Origin: a virus
Lineage: Duplodnaviria > Heunggongvirae > Uroviricota > Caudoviricetes
DNA length: 9,613 bases
Reading direction: 5' to 3' (one strand)
IMG/VR virus record: IMGVR_UViG_2684622670_000011
Coordinates: 1 to 9,613 of that record
Shown here: positions 1 through 9,613 of the stretch, piece after piece
Layout: every line of letters begins with the position of its first letter
Numbering within the stretch: position 1 is the stretch's first letter
Notes under the pieces: model-generated
The model's input: the letters and a program-made list of their open reading frames with translations, nothing else
Told to the model about the DNA's origin: nothing
Databases searched by the model: none
Translations under genes and position numbers: made by a program

Positions 1-17
1 GCCACAATAATGGGCTA

Positions 18-2000
18 TCACCCTGTGAATATGAAAATCAATGGAAAGAGGCTACACGGGTGTCCTGATTTTGTGATCCACAACAATCCATGCAGAATGA
101 CCAGAGCCTCGGCATACACCATCAGGTCAAAAGCTTCGTTGGCACCGCGACCCGGCTTACTCCATTTCCCGTCACTGCTCCGCTCTTCATACGTCAGTTC
201 GTCGTAAAACCAGCTCCCCAGCCAGTCAGGGAAATGCACATAGCCGGGACCTGGCGAGTCACGCCATAACGCGTTATTCACCCGGTCTTTCAGGGCATCC
301 GTCTGAAGAAGCCAGAGCGGCACATCACCTGCGGCCTGCGCCCGTCGGCCCGTTCGTCCGGTGTTATCAGGGAATGTACGGGTGATCAGTTTTGCGCGCC
401 GGATGCTGTCGCCCTTAAACAGGTAAATACGTTTACCAAGGCCATCACGACGGCAACGACGCCAGAATTTATAGGCATTATCAGTGACCCCGTCTTCACC
501 GCCGGAGTCCACCGCCATTGCCATCAGTCGCATTTGTTGAGAAGGATCGGAGGCCAGCGGCCAGCTTTTATGAAAAACATCCGTCAGCAGGACATCCCAG
601 TCTTCCGGATAGCTGGCCGGATCAATTCGCTGGCTCCCCCCGTCGCTGTCACCGCGCAATGACTGCGTGATGTTGTAACGATCAATAATCCAGCGTTCGC
701 CACGGCTGCCATAGCCCGTTACCTGAACCACAAAACGGCGATGACGTCCCGCCTGCACATCCACTGTCGCCACAAGGAAATTAACGCCATCCGGCACACT
801 GCGGGAAGGAACTGGCTCTGCCCGCTGCCCAAGCAGTTCACTTTTTCGTTGCTCCATGCTGGCGCGGGGAAGATAAGGTAATCCCCAGTCGGTATTGATA
901 ACCGTCTTGAGTGTTTCTTCACTTCCGGTTGTCTCGTATTCCTGTTCTGCAGTAAGCAGTTTGTAAACGAGTTGCGAGAGTGTCTGGTAAGCAGCTGCCG
1001 GACCCTCCATCCAGAATGACGCAATACGTGAGCGTCGGGGATCACCATAACGACTGCCATCCGCATTGATGGATTCACCATCCCGCAACCAGACCCCACG
1101 TCCGTTCAGCTCACGTTTTTGTTCAGGCATAATCCGTCCTGAACAGGAAGGACACTGAATATAAGCCGCCTCACTTGCCAGCACGGGATCGGCAATATCA
1201 CGGAAACCAGCAACCACATCGCCGCAGGGCTGAAAATACTCACCACAGTGTGGACAGGGCCAGTACCAGCGACGGCGATCGCCACGGTTATAGAGCGACA
1301 GTATCCCCGTGGTTGGTGGAGCCTCATGCGGTGAAGTCCGTCTCCATTTCACATCCTTCACATCCCTGCCGGGGGAACTCTCCACCAGCGTCATACCGCT
1401 GGACATAAATGTGGTGGTACGTTTTGAGGCAAGAGAGAAAGCATCCCCCTCGCCATCAATATCTTCCGGAAAACGGTCATAATCCGTCAGCGCCACGCAT
1501 TTATAATCTGATGAGGACATGATATTGACTGACGGCCAGCCGATTTTCAGGTAGTTGCCAGCAAGGAATGTTCTGTCATAAACGTTGTTGTCATTTTTGT
1601 TCGGACTCAGGCGACTGACCACTTCCGGGCTGACGCGAAACGTTCTGGCGAGTCGTTTTTTGGAGTGTTCGCGGGCTTTTTCCTCCGTCATCTGAATGAT
1701 CAGCATATCCGCAGGATCGCAAATCACGTTGTAAATCACCCAGCCGTCAATCAGGCCGATAGTCTTGCCGGTTCGTGCCGGGCCAACAAATATCACTGCG
1801 TCGTATTCACGCGAGGCCAGGCAGTTCATCGGCTCAATAACATACGGTGCCACCAGCGGATCCCACGGGACTGAGTTCCCTGCCCCCATGGGCACCCGCA
1901 TATACTGAGCAACGGCATCAGCAACCCGCATTCGTCTCGGTGCGCGAAGGATATAACCTGAATCGGTTCGTGCTGCCTTTGCGGTTTCCTGATTCAGCAT
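18..2000 (-). CDS. A: Phage terminase large subunit (lambda gpA family)
   Basis: 660-aa ORF. Walker-A-like GPARTGKT near the N-terminus; WPCPHCGEYF aligns with lambda gpA ACPHCGEEQY; VWLRDG and NEAFDLMVYAEAL segments match gpA. Start ATG overlaps the stop of the upstream small-subunit gene (TAATG), as in lambda Nu1/A. Confidence 0.9.
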   Translation of the reverse strand: MLNQETAKAARTDSGYILRAPRRMRVADAVAQYMRVPMGAGNSVPWDPLVAPYVIEPMNCLASREYDAVIFVGPARTGKTIGLIDGWVIYNVICDPADMLIIQMTEEKAREHSKKRLARTFRVSPEVVSRLSPNKNDNNVYDRTFLAGNYLKIGWPSVNIMSSSDYKCVALTDYDRFPEDIDGEGDAFSLASKRTTTFMSSGMTLVESSPGRDVKDVKWRRTSPHEAPPTTGILSLYNRGDRRRWYWPCPHCGEYFQPCGDVVAGFRDIADPVLASEAAYIQCPSCSGRIMPEQKRELNGRGVWLRDGESINADGSRYGDPRRSRIASFWMEGPAAAYQTLSQLVYKLLTAEQEYETTGSEETLKTVINTDWGLPYLPRASMEQRKSELLGQRAEPVPSRSVPDGVNFLVATVDVQAGRHRRFVVQVTGYGSRGERWIIDRYNITQSLRGDSDGGSQRIDPASYPEDWDVLLTDVFHKSWPLASDPSQQMRLMAMAVDSGGEDGVTDNAYKFWRRCRRDGLGKRIYLFKGDSIRRAKLITRTFPDNTGRTGRRAQAAGDVPLWLLQTDALKDRVNNALWRDSPGPGYVHFPDWLGSWFYDELTYEERSSDGKWSKPGRGANEAFDLMVYAEALVILHGLLWITKSGHPCSLFPLIFIFTG

Positions 2001-2494
2001 TACTCCTCCTGCTGTAGTTCCTCCTCATCATCCGCACCTGCTTCAGTCACCCGCAGGGCTATCTGATCGCGCAGATCATCAATAATGGACTGAACACGGC
2101 TCACAGCGGCAGGCTGCAGACCGCAGTCACGTTCCAGAATATCCGGTAATGTCTCCAGCACCTGCACGACCGCTTTTGCCCAGATGGCAAACTCCCGTCT
2201 GACATCACTGGCCGGAATGAGTTGTGCCGTTTCCTGTTCGAACTTAAGACGCTCACGTTCAGACTGATACCAGGCTTTGCGCTCATGCGCGTCCATTTCG
2301 CCTTCTGCAACAGGCGGTGGTAATGCCAGAAATGCCGACACAATATCAACCACCCGATAAAGCTTGAGGTTGCTTTCATGCCCCCCTGCAACGGGTAGAT
2401 TTTGCAGCCTTGCCGCAGCAGTCTGGCGATGTACACCTGACAGTGCCGCCAGTTGACTGATATTCAGCGTCAGATTTTTTAACTCTCGATCCAT
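2000..2494 (-). CDS. Terminase small subunit (Nu1-like DNA-packaging protein)
   Basis: 164 aa. N-terminal HTH-like segment (NISQLAALSGVHRQTAAARL) followed by a Gly-rich turn and LY motif, the same architecture as lambda Nu1; acidic C-terminal tail. Sits between cos and the large terminase gene. SD GGAG about 5 nt upstream of the ATG at 2492-2494. Confidence 0.7.
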   Translation of the reverse strand: MDRELKNLTLNISQLAALSGVHRQTAAARLQNLPVAGGHESNLKLYRVVDIVSAFLALPPPVAEGEMDAHERKAWYQSERERLKFEQETAQLIPASDVRREFAIWAKAVVQVLETLPDILERDCGLQPAAVSRVQSIIDDLRDQIALRVTEAGADDEEELQQEE

Positions 2495-2597
2495 ACCCGC
2501 TCCGGAATGTTTTAAACATGCATCTTGCGAACAACTTTAGGCAAACGGTGTTAGTGATGAACAAAAAATAATCAAAATCGACACCATAAAAATAAAA

Positions 2598-2628
2598 CCA
2601 CTGTAATATCAATCCATTACAGTAGTGG
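2598..2628. repeat. Imperfect inverted repeat inside cosB (candidate terminase small-subunit or IHF-associated site)
   Basis: CCACTGTAAT (2598-2607), 8-nt spacer ATCAATCC, then ATTACAGTAGTGG (2616-2628); arms are complementary except for a 2-nt insertion. Confidence 0.5.
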
Positions 2629-2663
2629 TGATGACGAATGAAATTTCAAAAACTAGCCTTTTT

Positions 2664-2685
2664 CCGCGACGCTCCCGCCCCGTGG
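2664..2685 (-). other. cosN nicking site with a variant 12-nt cohesive end
   Basis: Minus strand reads CACG-GGGCGGGAGCGT-CGCGG; lambda reads ACG-GGGCGGCGACCT-CGCGG. Flanks are identical and 8 of 12 positions of the cohesive-end 12-mer match my recollection of lambda. Confidence 0.55.
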
Positions 2686-3026
2686 CAGGCCACCCCACCG
2701 GGAGGACCCGTCAGCCTGACAGCCATGACGAACGTCTGATACAGCGCCCTGCATGAATGGCATCGGGATAATCCAGAAAGGAATAGCATCGTGCCCACAA
2801 GAATCTGTGTGAGTGTCCTGTTTCTTCCCCCCCGCACACTCACGCAGAAGGGGTTCCCCGTCGAGTTACGGTCATAGTTAATGCAGGAGACAGCGACGAT
2901 ATAGCGCACAGAAATAAATCAAGCATCCATTGAATGCATTGCATCGACAGGAGTAATGGCGTAGGCTGAACCCTTGGCTCTCTTTCGCCGCCGGCAAATC
3001 TTCAGCGGATTATCCTTGGCCGGTTT

Positions 3027-3491
3027 TTATCTGAGGCATTGCTCACGAATGTATAGCTGTGCCCCTTCCAGTTGCTTCTGCATCGTCATCAATCGGTCTC
3101 TGAGAGTGAAATAATCCCGTTCAGCGGTGTCTGCCAGTCGGGGGCTGGTTGCATCATCCACGCCGGAGGAGGCGGTGGCTTCACGCACGGCTGGACAGAC
3201 TGCTCTGATGCGCAACCGACGACGACCAGCGGCAATATCATCACGCAGAGCATCATTTTCAGCTTTCGCATCAGCTAATTCCTTTGAATATTTTGCATCG
3301 AGTGCAGCAACGTCACGCTGGCGCACCTGCATATCAGTAATGATCGCCTCTGCCAGTTTCAGCTCTCTGGCATTGTCATCGCGTTGTGTTTTGTAGGTAA
3401 TGGCGTTATCGCGGTAATGATCTGTTGCCAGCCACAGAGCACTACAGACCATCAGCAGGACAATAATCACGCCATACAGAATCCGGTTCAT
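3027..3491 (-). CDS. Rz: Rz i-spanin (inner-membrane spanin subunit)
   Basis: From the ATG at 3489-3491 the translation [55 protein letters not shown]... is near-collinear with lambda Rz (…[32 protein letters not shown]…). N-terminal TM helix. The TTG at 3542 in the ORF track is an upstream alternative I do not favour. Confidence 0.9.
   Translation of the reverse strand: [154 protein letters not shown]
3089..3271 (-). CDS. Rz1: Rz1 o-spanin (outer-membrane lipoprotein), embedded in Rz in the +1 frame
   Basis: 60 aa, MRKLKMMLCVMILPLVVVGCAS...CVKPPPPPAWMMQPAPDWQTPLNGIIS, nearly identical to lambda Rz1 (MLKLKMMLCVMMLPLVVVGC…CVKPPPPPAWIMQPPPDWQTPLNGIIS). Lipobox VVGC, proline-rich stretch, fully nested inside Rz. 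Confidence 0.9.
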   Translation of the reverse strand: MRKLKMMLCVMILPLVVVGCASEQSVQPCVKPPPPPAWMMQPAPDWQTPLNGIISLSETD

Positions 3492-3492
3492 T

Positions 3493-3630
3493 TCACCACC
3501 AGCGTATCTGACCGATGAAATAACCGGAGCCCATAACCACAAACACCAGCCAGATAAGGATGAACTTCCAGGTGGATAATTTTTCAGCCATCACTCGAAT
3601 CTCCAGAATCAGTTTGCTAAAATCAAACAC
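3493..3630 (-). CDS. Small single-pass membrane peptide (45 aa from GTG; alternative 32-aa form from the ATG at 3589-3591), unknown function
   Basis: Minus strand AAAGGAGAAAAC-GTG gives a strong SD 6 nt before the GTG at 3628-3630. Product MFDFSKLILEIRVMAEKLSTWKFILIWLVFVVMGSGYFIGQIRWW has one hydrophobic helix. Stop TGA lies 1 nt before the Rz ATG. Not present at this position in lambda, where R and Rz abut. Confidence 0.4.
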   Translation of the reverse strand: MFDFSKLILEIRVMAEKLSTWKFILIWLVFVVMGSGYFIGQIRWW

Positions 3631-3656
3631 GTTTTCTCCTTTAGCTTTCCCATGGG

Positions 3657-3707
3657 CAGAAAACAAAACCCCGCTTGCTGCCAACAAACGGGGTTTTTGC
3701 TTTTATT
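3657..3707. terminator. Bidirectional rho-independent terminator between endolysin and the small peptide gene
   Basis: Stem AAAACCCCG (3665-3673) pairs with CGGGGTTTT (3689-3697) around a 15-nt loop. Followed by TTTTTGCTTTTATT on the plus strand and by TTTTGTTTTCTG on the minus strand. Confidence 0.55.
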
Positions 3708-3786
3708 CACTTCCTTTTGCCAGTTTGCAGAATATCGTGTTATCCGCTTGTGTGAGCAAACGGCATTTTTCAGCAAAATATTCTGC

Positions 3787-4320
3787 TTATCTGTCGATCC
3801 CCCAGCACACCAGCGCACTCTCCTGGTCACGACGAATAACCTGACCGTAACAGTTATTTGAACGAATGCGGCAATCACGGCCACCGTCCTTAATCCACCA
3901 GCGAATCGCCTCGCATGCGCCTTTACGATCACCGGCATTCAGCCGCTTATAAAACGTCGACGGGAAACACTTACCGGGGCCAATGTTATAGGGACAAAAT
4001 GACGCAATACCTGCTTTTTGTGGTTCGGTCAGTGGTACTTTTATATTGCGATCCACCCATGCCAGCGCCTTATCACGTTCAATAGCGTTAACCTGGTCGC
4101 ATTTTTCCTTCGACAGCTTCATTCCCGGTATGACGGGCTTACCATCCACCATTGTGGCACCACGACAGATGGTCCATATGCCAGAACCATCACGGTATGC
4201 CGTTGTGTGGTTACCTTCTTTTTCATCCAGAAACTGGTCAAGTATTTGAGGAGCAGACGCGCCTGCAGCAATCAGCGCCAGAACGGCAGCTGACAGGCCG
4301 TATTTGATTTTTACGTTCAT
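3787..4320 (-). CDS. R: Phage endolysin, GH24 (T4-type) lysozyme with N-terminal signal/SAR segment
   Basis: 177 aa. E-x8-D-x5-T catalytic pattern (EGNHTTAYRDGSGIWT) typical of T4-like lysozymes. N-terminal Ala/Gly-rich hydrophobic segment GLSAAVLALIAAGASA, either a SAR domain or a cleavable signal peptide. Downstream of the pinholin. No obvious SD upstream of the ATG (AU-rich leader ATAAATATCC). Confidence 0.85.
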   Translation of the reverse strand: MNVKIKYGLSAAVLALIAAGASAPQILDQFLDEKEGNHTTAYRDGSGIWTICRGATMVDGKPVIPGMKLSKEKCDQVNAIERDKALAWVDRNIKVPLTEPQKAGIASFCPYNIGPGKCFPSTFYKRLNAGDRKGACEAIRWWIKDGGRDCRIRSNNCYGQVIRRDQESALVCWGIDR

Positions 4321-4433
4321 GGATATTTATCAGGATTTATCGGCTTCAAATCCCCGGATATGTTAAATCTTACCTCACCAGTGATGGGCACTGGCGGGAT
4401 GAGGATGTCAATCTGATAAACACAGAGGCGACT
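4321..4433 (+). promoter_or_regulatory. Intergenic region divergent between endolysin and the 86-aa plus-strand gene; probable promoter for the latter, with short direct repeats
   Basis: Contains GGATATTTATC (4321-4331) and GGATTTATC (4333-4341), with GGATAT again at 4356-4361. SD AGAGG at 4424-4428, 5 nt before the ATG at 4434. I could not assign -35/-10 hexamers confidently. Confidence 0.3.
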
Positions 4434-4694
4434 ATGGATTACACAAATCTACCAAAACAAACTTTTGCTGATTTAATCGCACTCAGGCAAGCAGTCGTAG
4501 CTCTAATCAACTTGTTGCCGGAGAAGGAAAAGGAATTAGTTAAAGCGCTTCTTAACAGAACTGCCGCCGATTTTTCATCATATCCACTGACAGATGACCT
4601 TGCGGACCTTCCTGAATTAATTGCAGCGTCCGCCAATAAGCTTACTGAAGAGATTTACCCTCCTCAAAAATCTTCACAAAATTCCTGCGAGTAA
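4434..4694 (+). CDS. Hypothetical acidic 86-aa protein, antisense to the phage late operon, with its own SD and terminator
   Basis: ATG with SD AGAGG; protein-like helical composition (MDYTNLPKQTFADLIALRQAVVALINLLPEKEKELVKALL…). A textbook intrinsic terminator sits 22 nt downstream of the stop (4717-4748). The last 53 nt overlap the 3' end of the convergent 183-aa gene. Confidence 0.5.
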   Translation: MDYTNLPKQTFADLIALRQAVVALINLLPEKEKELVKALLNRTAADFSSYPLTDDLADLPELIAASANKLTEEIYPPQKSSQNSCE

Positions 4695-5193
4695 CTTCAA
4701 TGCAATAATCGTAAAACGCCGCAAACTGCTCATCGCGGCGTTTTTTTTCATCTTCAGAAGGAATCAGCACCGACAATTTTTTATTCAGATCAGCGACGCT
4801 GCCCTCCAGTTTTTCAATGGGCGATTCAATATCATCTTTTTCTGACCGCAATGCCGTCGGTGGCGTCTTCAGAGAACCAGTAATTCTTCCCGGTAGCTTT
4901 CCTTTGTAGGTTATCCACACATTCTGCGCCTCTAAAATTATGGGGCGCTTTTCCGGCGACTGCTCATCCCCTTCACATAACCCGGCAGCAACATCCAGGA
5001 AGTCCTGTCTGATGCTCCTTCTGGCTGCTGCCTCATAAAACTCCAGCGCGGCACCTTCAACACGGTCCAGCGAGATGTCCAGGTCAAAAATTTCACCGTC
5101 AAAGTGTTTTTTGTCCCGTAAGGCTACAGTTACCGCCACTTTATTCTCAAAATTGCGAACTCCTTTCACAACCAGTTCATAGTCTTGAGTCAT
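4642..5193 (-). CDS. Hypothetical 183-aa soluble acidic protein inserted between holin and endolysin; N-terminus possibly DUF1327/YdfR-like (unverified)
   Basis: ATG at 5191-5193 lies 4 nt after the holin stop, with a purine-rich GAGAAGAGAG SD inside the holin 3' end, suggesting translational coupling to S. The ORF-track start at 5214 is a TTG overlapping the holin and is not favoured. No TM segments; charged, coiled-coil-like C-terminal half. Confidence 0.6.
   Translation of the reverse strand: MTQDYELVVKGVRNFENKVAVTVALRDKKHFDGEIFDLDISLDRVEGAALEFYEAAARRSIRQDFLDVAAGLCEGDEQSPEKRPIILEAQNVWITYKGKLPGRITGSLKTPPTALRSEKDDIESPIEKLEGSVADLNKKLSVLIPSEDEKKRRDEQFAAFYDYCIEVTRRNFVKIFEEGKSLQ
4717..4748 (+). 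terminator. Rho-independent terminator of the 86-aa plus-strand gene, embedded inside the minus-strand 183-aa CDS
   Basis: CGCCGC (4717-4722), 11-nt loop, GCGGCG (4735-4740), then T8 (4741-4748). On the minus strand the same bases encode KKRRDEQFAAFY of the 183-aa protein. Confidence 0.65.
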
Positions 5194-5197
5194 TGGA

Positions 5198-5413
5198 TTA
5201 CTCTCTTCTCGCAACCTTACGCCTGTCTTCTTTAATCTTGAAATAAAGGTTTGTCAGATACGTCAGCATGCCAAATACCAGACTACCCAATACACCTATT
5301 GCCGCCCACTGTGAGGGCGTGACTTTATCGAGCAACTGTAAAAACCAGTAGCCAGCACTGCCTGCAGAGGTGCTGTAGGCGATGCCCGTTGTTAACTTAT
5401 CCATGGATTTCAT
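5198..5413 (-). CDS. S: Class II holin, phage 21 S21-type pinholin with dual-start (antiholin/holin) motif
   Basis: 71 aa, [71 protein letters not shown], matching my recollection of S21 almost residue for residue. MKSM dual start, two TMDs, strong SD GGAGGTGA upstream of the ATG at 5411-5413. Confidence 0.9.
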
Positions 5414-5502
5414 AGCCTCACCTCCGCAGATAACGGATGGTGTACACGGTTTGGTTCGAAGAAGGAAAGAAGTTACATTAGCGTAAGGCCCGAACATCTA
5501 TT

Positions 5503-5534
5503 CAAAAAGAAAAACGCCAGCAATTATTCTGGCG
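5503..5534 (-). terminator. Rho-independent terminator downstream of the AraC-family gene
   Basis: Minus strand: CGCCAG, loop AATAATTG, CTGGCG, then TTTTTCTTTTTG; about 70 nt after the regulator stop codon. Confidence 0.5.
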
Positions 5535-5603
5535 TAGCTAAAAATATCGTATAATCTTACACTTCAAAAAATAACTTTATAAAATGCCATCACATCATAT
5601 CTT

Positions 5604-6317
5604 CTAAGAAAATCTTGATAAATATTGGTGCGGAGGCACACCAAAATATCCTCTAAAAACACTTACAAAATATGATGCATTGTCATACCCGCATATTCCC
5701 GCCACCTTGCCGACAGTATGGTTACTGTAGATCAATAATCTTTGCGCCATCATCATTCGTTCTTCAAGAATTAATTTACTAAACGATAACCCTTCATCTT
5801 CTAATTTTCTTTTTAACAAACTCTCGCTCATATATAATCTTGAAGATATATCACAAAGTCTCCATGACGCTGAGATATCCGAGTGAATAATAGCCTTAAC
5901 TTTACAACCTAAGCTATTAAGACTTCCGAACAAAAAACTTTGCACTATTTTCTCTGAAGATAAGACAGCAAGACATGCAAGTGATATTTGATTTCTAACT
6001 ACATCCACGGTTTTGCTATCACAATTCAAGCATGCAACCAAGTTCTTTAACAATGAAAAATCTTCACATTCTACTATAAAGTATGACGGATAAAACCTTC
6101 TTACAGAAAAAGGTGAGAGTGTGTAGTTTTTAAAGAAATCATTAACTGTTTTCTCCTCAACATCTACGATCATTAGATGATCTGTATTTGACGAAAAAAG
6201 ATCTTTTAAATTGTATTCAATGAGAACAGCATTTCCTTTTTTAAACAAAATATCTTCTTTACCAATTCGGACACCAAACGAGTTCAACACCAAAATGATA
6301 GAACATATGTATGGCAT
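5604..6317 (-). CDS. AraC/XylS-family transcriptional regulator, AppY/EnvY-like
   Basis: 237 aa from the ATG at 6315-6317, with SD AGGTGG 5 nt upstream (the GTG at 6326 is less likely). C-terminal AraC HTH region WRLCDISSRLYMSESLLKRKLEDEGLSFSKLILEERMMMAQRLL...GICGYDNASYFVSVFRGYFGVPPHQY aligns closely with my recollection of E. coli AppY. N-terminus MPYICSIILVLNSF resembles AppY MDYVCSVVFICQSF. Gene and flanks are visibly AT-rich. Confidence 0.8.
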   Translation of the reverse strand: MPYICSIILVLNSFGVRIGKEDILFKKGNAVLIEYNLKDLFSSNTDHLMIVDVEEKTVNDFFKNYTLSPFSVRRFYPSYFIVECEDFSLLKNLVACLNCDSKTVDVVRNQISLACLAVLSSEKIVQSFLFGSLNSLGCKVKAIIHSDISASWRLCDISSRLYMSESLLKRKLEDEGLSFSKLILEERMMMAQRLLIYSNHTVGKVAGICGYDNASYFVSVFRGYFGVPPHQYLSRFS

Positions 6318-6723
6318 ATTATCCACCTGATATCATTGGGGTTACACCAGGTAAGTATAGGTGGAAAATCAATATTCGCCAGTTCAACAATAAGGAAAAT
6401 CTCATTGCATCACAACTATAAAACCATGTGTTTAACTCACAAAAAACAAATCATTAAACTAATCTGTTATATTATAATAGCTGCGTGCAATAATAATATT
6501 ATATGCTCTTAATATTCACTTGAAATATCTTCATATAAAAACAGATTGAATAAAATCTTTTGGGGCTGGTATGTTTACCAACATTAAATTGCATCTCAAT
6601 GTTTTCTTTAGCGTGAACAGGATTTTTATAAAAACTGACACTATGAGCATCATAGCGTAGTTTTTACGATTGTAAATATCCTGCATACAGGAACTCATCA
6701 CTTTCAGATGATATCGCATACAG
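6318..6723 (-). promoter_or_regulatory. AT-rich ~400 bp intergenic region upstream of the AppY-like gene (probable promoter and silencing region)
   Basis: Very AT-rich with many TATAAT-like hexamers on both strands and no convincing ORF. Typical of upstream regions of horizontally acquired AraC-family genes. No specific promoter assigned. Confidence 0.3.
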
Positions 6724-7683
6724 TTAATTCACCATCAGTCTTAGAGCCAGTTCTTCCGGATAGGGATCGAAGTAATTCTGTGTAAGCAAGTAATCATTAG
6801 GATACTCACCCAGATAATGCTTCAGCAGAGTCAACGGCGCAAGAAGAGGCAATGTGCCAAAGCGATAGTTAAGTATAACCTCGCTCAACTCTTTACGCTG
6901 GCGTGTACTTAAGTAATTACTAAAATACCCCTGTATATGCATCAGCACATTCGTGTGATTTTTACGTGATGCTGGTTTTCTGAGAATCGCCATCAGATTA
7001 TCACGATACACCTCAAAGTATGATTCAAGGTCCGCCCACTCGTGTATTGCAGCCACAAATGGTCCCATATCTTTATAGCCTGCCTGGCTATGCGCCAACA
7101 ACTGAAGCTTATAACGACTATGAAAAGCTAATAACTCTCTTCTTGATAATTTCTCCTTGTAAAGGTGATTGAGCTCATGCAAAGCAAAAACTCTTTCAAT
7201 AAAATTCTCACGAAGCACTGGATCATGTAATCGCCCATCCTCTTCAACCGGTAGCCAGGAAAACTTTTCCATCAAAGTGCTCGTAAATAGTCCCACTCCA
7301 TCTTTACGACCTCGATTACCATTTTCATCATAGACACGCACGCGCTCCATGCCACAGCTGGGAGATTTAGCACAAACCACAAACCCCGATACATCCTTTA
7401 ATTTGTCCATATAAGAACGACTAAACTCTGTCATTCTCTCTGTCACATCCTCATTCTGGTCGTGGCTGAAACACATCTGTATATTTCCTTGCTTCGAGCG
7501 CACAAGTCGTAGAGCAGGACGCGGAACTGGCAGCCCTATAGCCATTTCCGGACATACTGGTCTGAATGTTACCCATTCCACTAATTTGTCCATTAAAAAG
7601 TCATCTCTTTTGTGACCACCATCAAAACGAACAGCAGAACCGCCCAAACAACCGCTGATCCCAATCACAGGTTTTTTTATCAT
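6724..7683 (-). CDS. Fused DUF523 (TudS-like [4Fe-4S] thio-nucleobase desulfurase) / DUF1722 (YbgA-like) protein
   Basis: 319 aa. N-terminal half has conserved cysteines in DUF523-like spacing (GISGCLGG, RPVCPEM, CAKSPSCG); C-terminal half is helical and YbgA-like. SD GGGGGAGG immediately upstream of the ATG at 7681-7683. Confidence 0.75.
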   Translation of the reverse strand: MIKKPVIGISGCLGGSAVRFDGGHKRDDFLMDKLVEWVTFRPVCPEMAIGLPVPRPALRLVRSKQGNIQMCFSHDQNEDVTERMTEFSRSYMDKLKDVSGFVVCAKSPSCGMERVRVYDENGNRGRKDGVGLFTSTLMEKFSWLPVEEDGRLHDPVLRENFIERVFALHELNHLYKEKLSRRELLAFHSRYKLQLLAHSQAGYKDMGPFVAAIHEWADLESYFEVYRDNLMAILRKPASRKNHTNVLMHIQGYFSNYLSTRQRKELSEVILNYRFGTLPLLAPLTLLKHYLGEYPNDYLLTQNYFDPYPEELALRLMVN

Positions 7684-7875
7684 TTCCTCCCCCTTGACTA
7701 ATTCATTAACACATAAACTTTGTAGTGCACGGACTAAATTGCCTTTCTGGCTTCATCACTGACAATTTTTCTGTTATTGACTATTCCTAATATAGTAGGA
7801 AAGTTCTTTAAGTGATCGGTCGTACTCATCTATCTTTCATACTTACTCTCAACTATCAAAAGTACAGGATTTATT
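7684..7875. promoter_or_regulatory. Divergent intergenic region between the DUF523/DUF1722 gene and the lipocalin gene
   Basis: 192 bp AT-rich spacer between divergently oriented starts; contains TTGACT hexamers (e.g. near 7693 and 7779) but no confidently paired -10 element. Confidence 0.3.
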
Positions 7876-8400
7876 ATGAAGTTATGGCCTGTGTTGACTG
7901 GCATTGCACTCTCTTTCACTCTTATAGCATGTAAGGCCCCGACACCACCTAAAGGTGTGCAGCCGATTACAAATTTTGACGCCAACCGCTACCTCGGAAA
8001 ATGGTATGAAATAGCTCGCCTCGAGAACTGGTTCGAACGTGGTCTGGAACAGGTCAGCGCTACTTATGAAAAACGGAACGACGGAGGGATTCGCGTACTT
8101 AACCGTGGATACGATCCAACGAAAAACAAATGGAGCGAGAGCGAAGGTAAAGCATACTTTACTGGAGATACTAAAACTGCAGCGTTGAAAGTTTCGTTTT
8201 TTGGCCCCTTCTATGGTGGCTATAATGTAATCAAACTGGATGATGAGTATAAGTATGCTCTTGTCAGTGGTCCGAACAGAGAATACCTATGGATTCTGGC
8301 AAGGACCCAAACTATTCCAGATAATGTAAAAGCAGACTATGTGCGTACCGCTCAAAAGTTGGGATTCAATGTCAATGAACTATTATGGGTTAATCAATAA
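7876..8400 (+). CDS. blc: Bacterial lipocalin Blc-like outer-membrane lipoprotein
   Basis: 174 aa. Signal peptide with lipobox LIAC then CKAPTPPKG. NFDANRYLGKWYEIARLENWFERGLEQV, SEGKAYFTGD, ALKVSFFGPFYGGYNVI and YLWILART blocks match E. coli Blc motifs (roughly half or more of residues identical by eye). SD AGGA 6 nt upstream of the ATG. Confidence 0.85.
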   Translation: MKLWPVLTGIALSFTLIACKAPTPPKGVQPITNFDANRYLGKWYEIARLENWFERGLEQVSATYEKRNDGGIRVLNRGYDPTKNKWSESEGKAYFTGDTKTAALKVSFFGPFYGGYNVIKLDDEYKYALVSGPNREYLWILARTQTIPDNVKADYVRTAQKLGFNVNELLWVNQ

Positions 8401-8428
8401 AATCCCCACCCGAAATGATACTTATTAG

Positions 8429-8455
8429 AAAAAAACCAGCCTTTGGGGAGGCTGG
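8429..8455 (-). terminator. Rho-independent terminator downstream of Q (tR'-like)
   Basis: Minus strand: CCAGCCT, loop CCCCAA, AGGCTGG, then T7; about 100 bp downstream of the Q stop. On the plus strand the hairpin is not followed by a T-run, so it is oriented for minus-strand transcripts. Confidence 0.55.
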
Positions 8456-8555
8456 CTAAATCAGGAAACAAGCTGTTATATGATAATAACTACGTTGCGA
8501 TTCCAACATTTAAAATGTTAGACTAATGAAAATCAGACAGCAACTTTTCCTTTAA
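8456..8555 (-). promoter_or_regulatory. Putative late promoter pR' and qut region
   Basis: Position immediately downstream of Q and upstream of the tR'-like terminator matches lambdoid late-control architecture. Candidate hexamers TTGGAA...TATCAT and a near-palindrome AACATTTTAAATGTT (plus-strand coordinates about 8501-8520); exact promoter not resolved. Confidence 0.35.
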
Positions 8556-8933
8556 TTATTTCGAACAATCAGCATCCATCTCCAATCGGAGATCCAACAC
8601 CATCAGCATGCCCTCCACTACGCCCTCAGCTTTCTGGAGCATCCTGCCAACCCAACAATCAGATCGCCCATGCTTACGTGCAAGCGCCATAAAAGTCATG
8701 CCGCCGACATAATAGTCCACCAATAAATCATGTAAATCGCTGTTGTTTTTTTTCAGGCGAGCCATACATTCACAAATGATCATCGCGTCATCGTCACAGC
8801 ATTGCGGACGAGATCTTACTTTTGAAGGAATTAATCCCTTAAAACCGGCGGCAATGGACGACCAGGTCACATCTTCATGATTATTAGCCGCCCATGCCCC
8901 CCAACGCTCAAGAACCATCTGAATATCACGCAT
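8556..8933 (-). CDS. Q: Late-gene antiterminator Q (phage 82 / DLP12 QuuD type)
   Basis: 125 aa from the ATG at 8931-8933 (SD GGAG upstream; the ORF-track start at 8948 is a TTG). [35 protein letters not shown]...[32 protein letters not shown] matches my recollection of E. coli QuuD closely. Confidence 0.85.
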
Positions 8934-8950
8934 CAACTTACTCCACAAAA

Positions 8951-9613
8951 TTAGGCCAGCACACCAATTGCCAGCGCGCGATCGATAAATCGAAAAATCA
9001 GCTCCAGTTGGGAGCCATACTTCTCTTCAAATGCCACGGTATCCGTATGCAACTCGTCGTGATGCTTTCTGCACAAAGGCAACACAAAGAGATCATGTGC
9101 TTTGGTTCCCATTCCGCCCTGCCCGTGACCAATCAGATGATGCGGATCGTCGGCTGGCATACCGCAGCAAGCACACGGCTGTGTCTTAACCCAGCGTGTG
9201 TATTTCTCCTTAACCCAACGGTGACGTTTAGGCAGCTTCATGAAAGATTCCGGAGACTCTGGATCAACGGTGATGCTTACCACCGTCTTTTCCTGTGATG
9301 GGTTTTGTTGCTGGTGGGCGTGAGGCAACGGTGCAAGATTTTTTGTGCGCTGTTTCAATATGCTGGTGGCGGTCTGCTCTCCCGGTACGATGTCGCTTTC
9401 GCGGTACACCGAGCAGTTTTTTTCCGCTGGTAATCCCAGCGAGCGACGTAATACCGCTTCCGGTAACGCGTCCGCCACCTGATTGCGGACCGCCCACCAG
9501 GATAATTCAGCCAGAGATAATTCACGCTCCTGCGTACCGCTTATTGCGTGACCGATGACGTCAATCATCCATGCTGACAGGTTTTGATGAGCAAGTTGCT
9601 CGAGTGATTCGGA
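8951..9613 (-). CDS. nin-region protein with C-terminal Cys/His-rich HNH-like zinc-binding domain; 5' end probably outside the window
   Basis: Reading frame is open from the window edge (no in-frame stop between 9569 and 9613). C-terminal region has CACCG...DDPHHL...CRKHHDELH, a CxxC...HH...CxxH pattern. Sits immediately upstream of Q, where lambdoid phages carry NinG / YbcO / YdfU-type genes. An internal ATG at 9239-9241 would give a 96-aa domain-only product. Confidence 0.5.

Follow-up and report, generated by a model that had tools for sequence, protein, structure and literature searches.

Introduction

Cis-antisense RNAs that overlap the 5' end of their target are found in type I toxin-antitoxin (TA) loci such as symE/symR, ibs/sib and hok/sok, and the counter-transcribed RNAs of plasmids and the sar RNA of phage P22 are likewise short antisense RNAs, which block translation at the overlapping 5' end of the mRNA. 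Here we describe a locus with a comparable predicted layout in a 9,613-nucleotide stretch of tailed-phage DNA (Caudoviricetes; positions 1 to 9,613 of IMG/VR record IMGVR_UViG_2684622670_000011), the whole of which we call the window and which is the late region of a lambdoid prophage, read on the minus strand. Between the genes for the endolysin R and the i-spanin Rz lies a 295-bp insert that carries a terminator and a small gene for a membrane peptide, and that an earlier annotation made from the sequence alone (the original prediction) had likened to type I TA loci. Sequence comparison makes it probable that the insert is a moron in which a constitutive antisense RNA of about 75 nt silences a membrane peptide whose gene is driven by the late operon.

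The likeness to type I systems extends to a peptide of fewer than 60 residues (here 45) with a single transmembrane (TM) helix, to a small antisense RNA, predicted here, that has its own constitutive promoter and intrinsic terminator and covers the Shine-Dalgarno (SD) sequence and start codon, to sequestration of the SD in the mRNA leader, and to carriage on mobile elements with several copies per element (locus L016, below). The locus differs from them in having no dedicated toxin promoter, being co-directional with phage late operons and, it appears, driven by read-through; in a terminator that lies upstream of the peptide gene and would be used in both directions; and in a conserved 22-residue cytoplasmic helix, which may mean that the peptide has a specific partner and is not a generic pore. 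The comparison with hok/sok holds for the small TM peptide and the predicted architecture, but not for a conserved toxin promoter. Searches against known type I families (Hok/Gef, Ldr, Ibs, TisB, ShoB, Zor, DinQ, SymE, PtaRNA1 and others) gave no sequence, profile or covariance-model match, and we use the TA label as a working analogy. The hokW-sokW system of prophage Sp5, characterised separately (PMC8621323), was considered as the same locus and rejected, as the Hok family shares no sequence similarity with the peptide.

With ctRNA_pGA1 and P22 sar RNA the predicted RNA shares its shortness and its plan of one target-pairing stem-loop followed by a terminator; the target differs, being a membrane peptide where theirs is a replication or antirepressor gene. 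The antisense strand of the copy from an Azoarcus metagenome-assembled genome (L028, 2411-2494, minus) gives a weak Rfam match to ctRNA_pGA1 (30.5 bits, E 0.033) that falls below the gathering score and is confined to this one copy, so that the likeness is architectural, not homologous; at E<=1 Rfam returned nothing in the insert region, and this sub-threshold match was the only one among 9 other loci. The morons of lambdoid phages (Juhala et al. 2000, as cited in PMC4104026) resemble the insert in their presence/absence polymorphism between otherwise collinear phages and in being inserted between essential late genes, with GC content below that of the flanks and with a terminator. Classical morons, however, are expressed from the prophage by a sense promoter of their own and have a terminator downstream of the gene, whereas the only conserved promoter seen here is antisense and the terminator stands upstream of the gene. 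Prophages of enterohaemorrhagic Escherichia coli (EHEC) also encode anti-sRNAs and the Hfq-bound small RNAs (sRNAs) AgvB and AsxR, which map to the pR' moron site and target core sRNAs in trans (PMC4104026). These too are short RNAs of prophage origin that carry a terminator and occupy conserved positions in the lambdoid late region, but the RNA predicted here would be cis-antisense to a coding gene; identity with them was rejected, since none is located at this locus: AgvB, AsxR and the EcOnc series are found at the pR' moron site or elsewhere, EcOnc10-12 after Rz in prophages that carry ant.

Results

The insert has exactly the extent that was first proposed (Table 1), and its GC content is 0.41-0.43 against 0.47-0.56 in the flanks. 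On the strand opposite the peptide gene the original prediction had pointed to an extended -10-like element, TGCTAAAAT, with TCGAAT upstream as a possible -35 site; both are present, exactly 17 bp apart, and they coincide with two islands of frozen synonymous sites. The extended -10, TGnTAnnnT, is invariant over codons 3-6 in 25 of 25 aligned homologues, in which the antisense strand reads TGCTAAAAT, TGCTAATAT, TGCTAAGAT, TGCTAGAAT, TGATAAAAT or TGATAAACT. Positions -15 and -14 (TG), T-12, A-11 and T-7 are fixed; variation is confined to -13 and -10 to -8, as in the information profile of an extended -10, and the element stays constant while residues 4 and 5 of the peptide change (F/I/L/S and S/I), even in GC-rich Pseudomonas and Azoarcus. 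Expressed as the fraction of sequence pairs sharing an amino acid that also use the same codon, codon identity is 1.00 at each of codons 3, 4 and 5, and 0.90, 0.87 and 0.80 at codons 10-12 (GAG TTG CGA, one a rare Arg codon), compared with 0.24-0.62 elsewhere. This second island is the -35 site, found at 17-18-bp spacing as TCGCAA, TCGAAT or TTCGCA. TGCTAATGT, TGATATAAT, TGATAGGAT, TATGAT and TAAGAT occupy the same place in five distant members, or lie no more than 2-3 nt from it. When both strands were scanned with position weights, the antisense promoter had the top score in 20 of 21 diverse copies, and a sense promoter, sought in the 40-nt leader, the hairpin and the R-proximal 85 nt, was positionally conserved in none of 21 diverse copies. 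The motif of this putative promoter is conserved far beyond chance or coding constraint.

An RNA starting about 6-7 nt past the -10 would be 72-81 nt long in all copies, as judged from per-sequence folds, and would share a 5' stem-loop (SL1) with the anti-SD UUCUCC in its 5' arm, an A-rich linker AGAAACAGAAA, and the terminator with its U tail; the 77-nt form predicted in the window folds at -23.2 kcal/mol (z -2.8). Pairing holds for 92% of cells in a MAFFT alignment, where compensatory change is seen in 11 of 15 pairs, and in the alignment of 31 copies to a covariance model, R1, built from 25 copies, 89% of cells pair (slid controls 35-55%) with compensatory change in 18 of 22 pairs; neither result was reached in 500 shuffles (0/500 each), although shuffle and binomial figures overstate independence because the sequences are phylogenetically related. 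The stems differ entirely between lineages (CCUUG/CAAGG, GACU/AGUC, CAUG/CAUG, CCUUCUG/CAGAAGG and CGUUA/UAACG), and the covariation indicates that the predicted RNA structure is under selection. Strand preference points the same way: G.U pairs in SL1 number 26 in the antisense orientation and 8 in the sense (p = 0.003), and R1 scores the antisense strand 20-50 bits above the sense at every site, 68.2 (plus) against 44.2 (minus) in the window. In the terminator the counts are 6 (antisense) and 11 (sense), as expected of a two-way function. In 28 of 33 R1 matches, among them cassettes with unrelated peptides, a TAnnnT lies 3-10 nt before the model start, compared with a background of 7.9%. The plus-strand RNA would hold its anti-SD in the covarying SL1 stem. 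On the minus-strand mRNA the SD is sequestered in the leader fold, where its partner is the UUUCU past the terminator. An antisense RNA of about 75 nt covering SD and start codon and ending at a shared terminator, as first proposed, is thus strongly supported by comparison as a predicted layout.

That terminator had been described as a bidirectional GC stem, and it can be recognised on both strands. The consensus scan calls it on the minus strand only, with 15 pairs, as a C.A mismatch breaks the stem on the plus strand; there RNAfold gives a hairpin of 9 bp, a 1x1 loop and 3 bp, followed by UUUUUGCUUUU. The hairpin, with the consensus AAAGCGAAA(A/G)CCCCG...CGGGG(T/C)TTT, precedes the start codon by about 35-45 nt in all full-length copies, five distant out-of-sample members among them, with compensatory changes in 9 of 13 pairs, 93% of cells paired and, in the alignment, a U-tract past it in the antisense direction in all copies. 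It would form the 3' end of the predicted antisense RNA. In the sense direction the stop codon of the upstream gene often lies only about 25-30 nt ahead of it, which makes the hairpin the 5' edge of the cassette (terminator, leader and peptide gene) and leaves no space for a sense promoter.

The SD and GTG start of the peptide gene are as first described, except that 5 nt and not 6 separate them; an SD of the form GGAG, GGGAG or GAGG is kept in homologues. The stop codon abuts the start of Rz as stated, and the RWW codons at the 3' end, GGTGGTGA, are SD-like and positioned for Rz. The peptide matches PHROG 6632, a phage family of unknown function (E 4e-28, residues 1-45 on profile positions 1-45), searches of Pfam, NCBIfam and PADLOC gave no match, and neither Pfam nor PHROG linked it to a known family of holins, antiholins or spanins. 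Close relatives found by a word-indexed search number 33, the closest of them (98% identity) annotated in Escherichia albertii, and the E. coli homologue WP_000459345.1 is annotated by PGAP as a 45-residue hypothetical protein; for the DNA of the region the best E. coli match is only about 90% identical, which makes it seem likely that the prophage came from an Escherichia other than E. coli, for instance E. albertii. An exhaustive profile search gave 35 representatives at 50% clustering, nearly all of 42-51 residues, with the consensus M-x-D-F-S-K-L-I-R-E-L-R-x-M-x-E-K-L-P-x-W-K/R-F followed by a hydrophobic TM segment and often by GYFIGQIRWW. The single TM segment that had been proposed is supported by a Kyte-Doolittle hydropathy peak of 2.0 at residues 24-42 and by an AlphaFold model (mean pLDDT 81) with helices at 3-16 and 19-43 separated by a break, so that the peptide is predicted to consist of an N-terminal amphipathic helix and a C-terminal transmembrane helix. 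The ratio of nonsynonymous to synonymous substitution (dN/dS) is 0.06-0.21 over codons 13-45, with synonymous change near saturation, and by this measure the open reading frame (ORF) is a real gene under purifying selection. That it might instead be a chance ORF in a degraded remnant of a larger gene is vanishingly improbable: truncated copies do exist (in Serratia and Dryocola), but length, start and stop are consistent across proteobacterial phages, the ORF is conserved at full length with dN/dS well below 1, and it belongs to a PHROG family.

The R-cassette-Rz arrangement occurs in 871 of 5426 complete E. coli genomes, and a survey of R-Rz junctions in related phages, which had been suggested as a check, found the cassette in many phages encoding the Shiga toxins (Stx) Stx1a, Stx2a and Stx2c, in H-19B and CP-1639, and in Salmonella phage SPN3UB. 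It is absent from K-12 Qin, from 933W and from Sakai Sp6, Sp10 and Sp15. R and Rz, normally adjacent as the original prediction held, overlap in Qin, and as Qin lacks the cassette the K-12 small-protein catalogues are uninformative; the three Sakai prophages are ant-type, with ant at the position of the cassette, as in 933W. Homologues extend to phages of Escherichia, Salmonella, Yersinia, Pseudomonas, Azoarcus and others, in a range of gene contexts (Table 1). In every context examined but one the peptide gene is co-oriented with the neighbouring late genes, the exception being L016-L018, where the upstream neighbour lies on the opposite strand. To judge from this distribution the cassette is mobile. 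It can also decay, as N-terminally truncated remnants lacking both hairpin and antisense -10 are present around position 2500 in L029 (Serratia sp. Ag1) and L030 (Dryocola).

Small membrane ORFs recur in the slot immediately ahead of Rz. In Sakai Sp10 a different 48-residue TM ORF, ECs_1966 (MGWLMISDKLITLVKSLCVLVGISFLVMLVAIFFSTAWRVLTLSGLVG; L133, 5625-5771), lies between ant and Rz and abuts the Rz start, as do ECs_5713 in Sp6 and ECs_5741 in Sp15. In SPN3UB an unannotated 36-residue hydrophobic ORF, MSKRDVSALCFLMAAAVAISGNDGWGWLIFAGIIIL (L005, about 2235-2345), overlaps the endolysin stop upstream of the spacer and cassette. Another neighbour of a cassette, the Bro-N gene of L009, has an Rfam sRNA-Xcc1 match above the gathering score upstream of it (4630-4718, minus; 63.3 bits).

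Beyond the peptide family, R1 also finds the 5' module (terminator, leader and antisense -10) ahead of other, unrelated small TM peptides, most of which end in (A/V)IRWW; examples are ECs_1094 at the R/Rz junction of Sakai Sp4 and copies in L009, L016, L030 and L132, with three cassettes within 2.5 kb in L016 (Table 1). The peptide family of the window would then belong to a modular superfamily in which the RNA module and an IRWW-stop 3' end are both conserved, as is suggested by conserved ends that enclose interchangeable peptide bodies. A serious possibility, which we advance tentatively, is that the insert is the first example of a large class of modular cassettes in phage late operons, each with the 5' module, an interchangeable membrane peptide and a 3' end that supplies the SD of the next gene, acting as a promoter-less, type I-like 'late switch'. 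The peptides of such a class would have N-termini of four or more unrelated families and, in most cases, an (A/V)IRWW end; the antisense RNA would hold the peptide off in lysogens, and late transcription would free a membrane-active peptide at a set delay.

The gene order in the window is NinG, antiterminator Q, cargo, a P21-type holin, a DUF1327/YdfR-like gene, the signal-anchor-release (SAR) endolysin R, the gap, Rz/Rz1, and the small and large terminase subunits. The N-terminus of R, AAVLALIAAGASAP, looks like a SAR segment. The R-proximal part of the gap, about 85 nt past the R stop, is kept in E. coli O145, 933W, SPN3UB and phiSTEC1589 whatever comes next, being followed by ant instead of the cassette in 933W, and does not accompany cassette copies in non-lysis contexts. 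Its small hairpin is bordered by AGAATATTTTGCTGAAAAATG and CGGATAACACGAAAT, the latter resembling the lac operator. In a fold of the sense transcript (minus strand, 3600-3790) CAGAAUAUUUUGCUGAAAA, just past the R stop, pairs at long range with the first peptide codons, UUUGAUUUUAGCAAACUGAUUCUG, a predicted interaction that could be an extra translational lock particular to the R-Rz context. Elsewhere in the window, a hairpin with a U-run just downstream of the Q stop (8427-8470, minus) gives a sub-threshold Rfam match to Betaproteobacteria_toxic_sRNA (28.6 bits, E 0.017); the simplest reading is that it ends the short pR' transcript as a tR'-type terminator. Between Q and the holin (5604-8400) lie cargo genes whose functions are guessed from the translations alone: a regulator of the AraC family (5604-6326, minus), a YbgA-like protein with DUF523/DUF1722 (6724-7683, minus) and a lipoprotein of the Blc lipocalin type (7876-8400, plus). 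The DUF1327/YdfR-like protein between holin and R (4642-5214, minus) has a C-terminal extension of about 70 residues, and the 3' end of its gene is overlapped by a convergent 86-residue ORF of PHROG 2572 (4434-4694, plus).

Table 1. Features of the insert and its flanks in the window, followed by contexts and copies of the cassette or its 5' module elsewhere (L numbers are locus labels).
Feature	Position or locus	Strand	Remarks
SAR-type endolysin R	3787-4320	-	Pfam Phage_lysozyme, E 1.2e-24; PHROG 7 endolysin; upstream flank in late operon
R stop codon	3787-3789	-	Upstream limit of gap
Gap (insert) between R and Rz	3492-3786		295 bp; read from sequence
R-proximal conserved spacer	3700-3786	-	Small covarying hairpin 3744-3763; outside mobile cassette
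Bidirectional intrinsic terminator	3657-3707	both	A-tract, GC hairpin 3665-3697, U-tract; terminator scan and fold
Leader / SL1 region	3631-3664	both	Per-sequence folds; 9/9 SL1 pairs compensatory
Predicted antisense RNA, about 75 nt	3630-3706	+	5' anti-start/anti-SD, SL1, A-rich linker, terminator, U tail
Shine-Dalgarno AAAGGAG	3636-3642	-	5 nt before GTG; read from sequence
Peptide gene, 45 residues	3493-3630	-	GTG start 3628-3630; product VFDFSKLILEIRVMAEKLSTWKFILIWLVFVVMGSGYFIGQIRWW; TGA 1 nt from Rz ATG
Predicted antisense sigma-70 promoter	3595-3623	+	-35 TCGAAT 3595-3600; 17-bp spacer; extended -10 TGCTAAAAT 3615-3623
Rz (i-spanin)	3027-3491	-	Pfam Phage_lysis, E 1.9e-49; PHROG 13; ATG 3489-3491; downstream flank
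Rz1 (o-spanin lipoprotein)	3089-3271	-	ORF embedded in Rz; lipobox LVVVGC
R/Rz junction context	Stx phages, H-19B, SPN3UB		
Baseplate-gene context	SEN34, L008, Yersinia, Izhakiella		
Tail context	L009-11		Past gpK, beside Bro-N
Tail context	L123, L124, L132		Near tape-measure or gpJ genes
Head context	L131		Mu-F/DUF2513 to scaffold and capsid genes
Internal-virion context	L129, Azoarcus		Beside T7_gp14-like genes
After GH108 endolysin	Edwardsiella		
TA-island context	L012, L016-18		PrlF/YhaV, ParE, RelB and HicAB modules
Further copy	Pseudomonas phage YMC11/02/R656		
5' module with ECs_1094, R/Rz junction of Sakai Sp4	L136 5670-5950 (record 1184614-1184948)		MKGIEVETPASLDLTRAAAFAIRIVAIAVLVWAIRWW
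5' module, two further L016 copies	L016 4124-4379, 5650-5884		MNSTDAGIV...AIRWW
5' module with 60-residue ORF	L009 2411-2670		
5' module with 59-residue ORF	L132 2605-2863		...AAIRWW
5' module with Dryocola ORF	L030 2026-2200		...YVIRWW

Discussion

The reading of the insert as a silenced late gene can be set out as a mechanism. The peptide would reside in the inner membrane, its amphipathic N-terminal helix lying in the cytoplasm and followed, after a kink, by a C-terminal TM helix that ends in RWW. The peptide gene, without a promoter of its own, would be transcribed only when late-operon transcription reads through the hairpin, here probably pR' transcription under Q antitermination, a source suggested by established lambda biology and by the Q gene that the window contains. 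On the opposite strand, within codons 3-6 and 11-12, a constitutive sigma-70 promoter of the extended -10 type would produce an RNA of about 75 nt perfectly complementary to the start codon, the SD and the entire leader, and the bidirectional terminator would stop this RNA before R and also dampen sense read-through. In the lysogen the antisense RNA would be in excess, pairing with leaky sense transcript, occluding the SD and probably inviting RNase III, which would keep the peptide off. On induction, massive late transcription would titrate the RNA and occlude the antisense promoter, and the peptide would then be made with Rz/Rz1, probably with a delay, the translation of Rz/Rz1 being re-seeded by the SD-like 3' end of the peptide gene. 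We infer in particular that the RNA is made and represses translation, that the peptide is toxic and that it appears late. Such tight, two-layer silencing would imply a peptide harmful to the growing host, one that most likely acts on the membrane and is of use to the phage late in infection.

Several observations weigh against this mechanism, as does the relatedness of the aligned sequences noted above. The -35 is weak, matching consensus at 3-4 of 6 positions (3/6 in the window), a consensus scan rejects the promoter, and selection for translation initiation can likewise favour AU-rich codons at the start of a gene. Conservation is stronger in the N-terminal helix than in the TM segment, a pattern that fits a regulator binding a specific protein better than a generic pore-forming toxin. 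An intra-operon terminator should be polar on Rz/Rz1, or on the baseplate genes in non-lambdoid hosts without known antitermination. No transcript, ribosome-profiling or toxicity data were found for the cassette, and the Hfq-CRAC orphan-peak table for O157 Sakai has no peak at the Sp4 copy, the sole 5' module in Sakai, a null limited by the facts that this copy encodes a different peptide and that the RNA need not bind Hfq.

A classical type I TA or abortive-infection system would differ from the proposed late gene in having a constitutive, stable toxin mRNA made from an unrecognised promoter of its own and held in check by a labile antisense RNA, the toxin being freed on prophage loss or on shut-off of the host by an infecting phage. 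The small hydrophobic peptide and the predicted cis-antisense RNA over its SD fit such a system, as do the copies in TA or defence-type islands, and in L016-L018 the opposed upstream neighbour means that a local sense promoter would be needed. We nevertheless consider it unlikely, given that the 21 diverse copies have no positionally conserved sense promoter, that in several contexts the upstream gene ends too close to the hairpin to leave room for one, that outside L016-L018 the gene is co-oriented with late genes throughout, and that PADLOC, Pfam and Rfam show no match to known systems.

The original prediction had also allowed for a lysis accessory factor, antiholin-like or spanin-associated. 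Such a peptide would work only together with S, R, Rz and Rz1, the hairpin and antisense signals serving to tune the stoichiometry of the lysis genes. This would account for the exact placement between R and Rz, here and in the E. coli genomes counted above, for the translational abutment with Rz and for the recurrence of other small TM ORFs in the slot before Rz (ECs_1966 in ant-type prophages, ECs_1094 in Sp4), and co-expression with the lysis genes would follow. The alternative has been weakened by the occurrence of the peptide and its 5' module at baseplate, tail, head, internal-virion and TA-island sites with no lysis gene nearby; many lambdoid phages, moreover, lyse without the cassette, and the peptide has no likeness to holins, antiholins or spanins. 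It now seems improbable that the peptide is dedicated to lysis.

We give similarly little credence to the view that there is no antisense RNA at all, the hairpin being an intra-operon terminator or mRNA stabiliser and the frozen codons 3-5 and 10-12 serving initiation, mRNA folding or recombination of the cassette. In its favour are the poor -35 and the negative consensus scan, the preference of initiation for AU-rich 5' coding regions, the sense leader's own SD-sequestering fold, the conservation of the cassette ends, which is like that of recombination linkers, and the fact that an experimental RNA was not found. It is harder to reconcile with an invariant/variable pattern that matches the extended -10 exactly and persists as the amino acids change, with a -10 at the same offset in cassettes for unrelated peptides, with a second frozen island precisely 17-18 bp away, with the G.U asymmetry of SL1 in favour of the antisense strand, and with the antisense-direction U-tract past the hairpin in all copies.

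A literature search for the peptide sequence, the PHROG identifier and the RefSeq accession found no paper mentioning any of them, keyword searches brought up nothing of relevance, and on that basis the cassette is previously undescribed. It is nonetheless widespread, being present in about one in six complete E. coli genomes and in Stx1-, Stx2a- and Stx2c-converting phages including the classic H-19B, where records mostly leave it unannotated or label it hypothetical. If the model holds, the cassette would add a family of antisense-RNA/peptide systems to the phages of Enterobacteria and Pseudomonas, of a design not described for type I loci, with no toxin promoter and with the gene embedded in, and gated by, a late operon. 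A promoter placed in the synonymous sites of the gene that it regulates would be a natural example of overlapping coding and regulatory constraint, and the conserved ends suggest how small morons may swap among unrelated phages with operon expression left intact. For the Shiga toxin phages, the peptide is a candidate for an unrecognised late function that may affect toxin release, through lysis timing, membrane depolarisation or exclusion.

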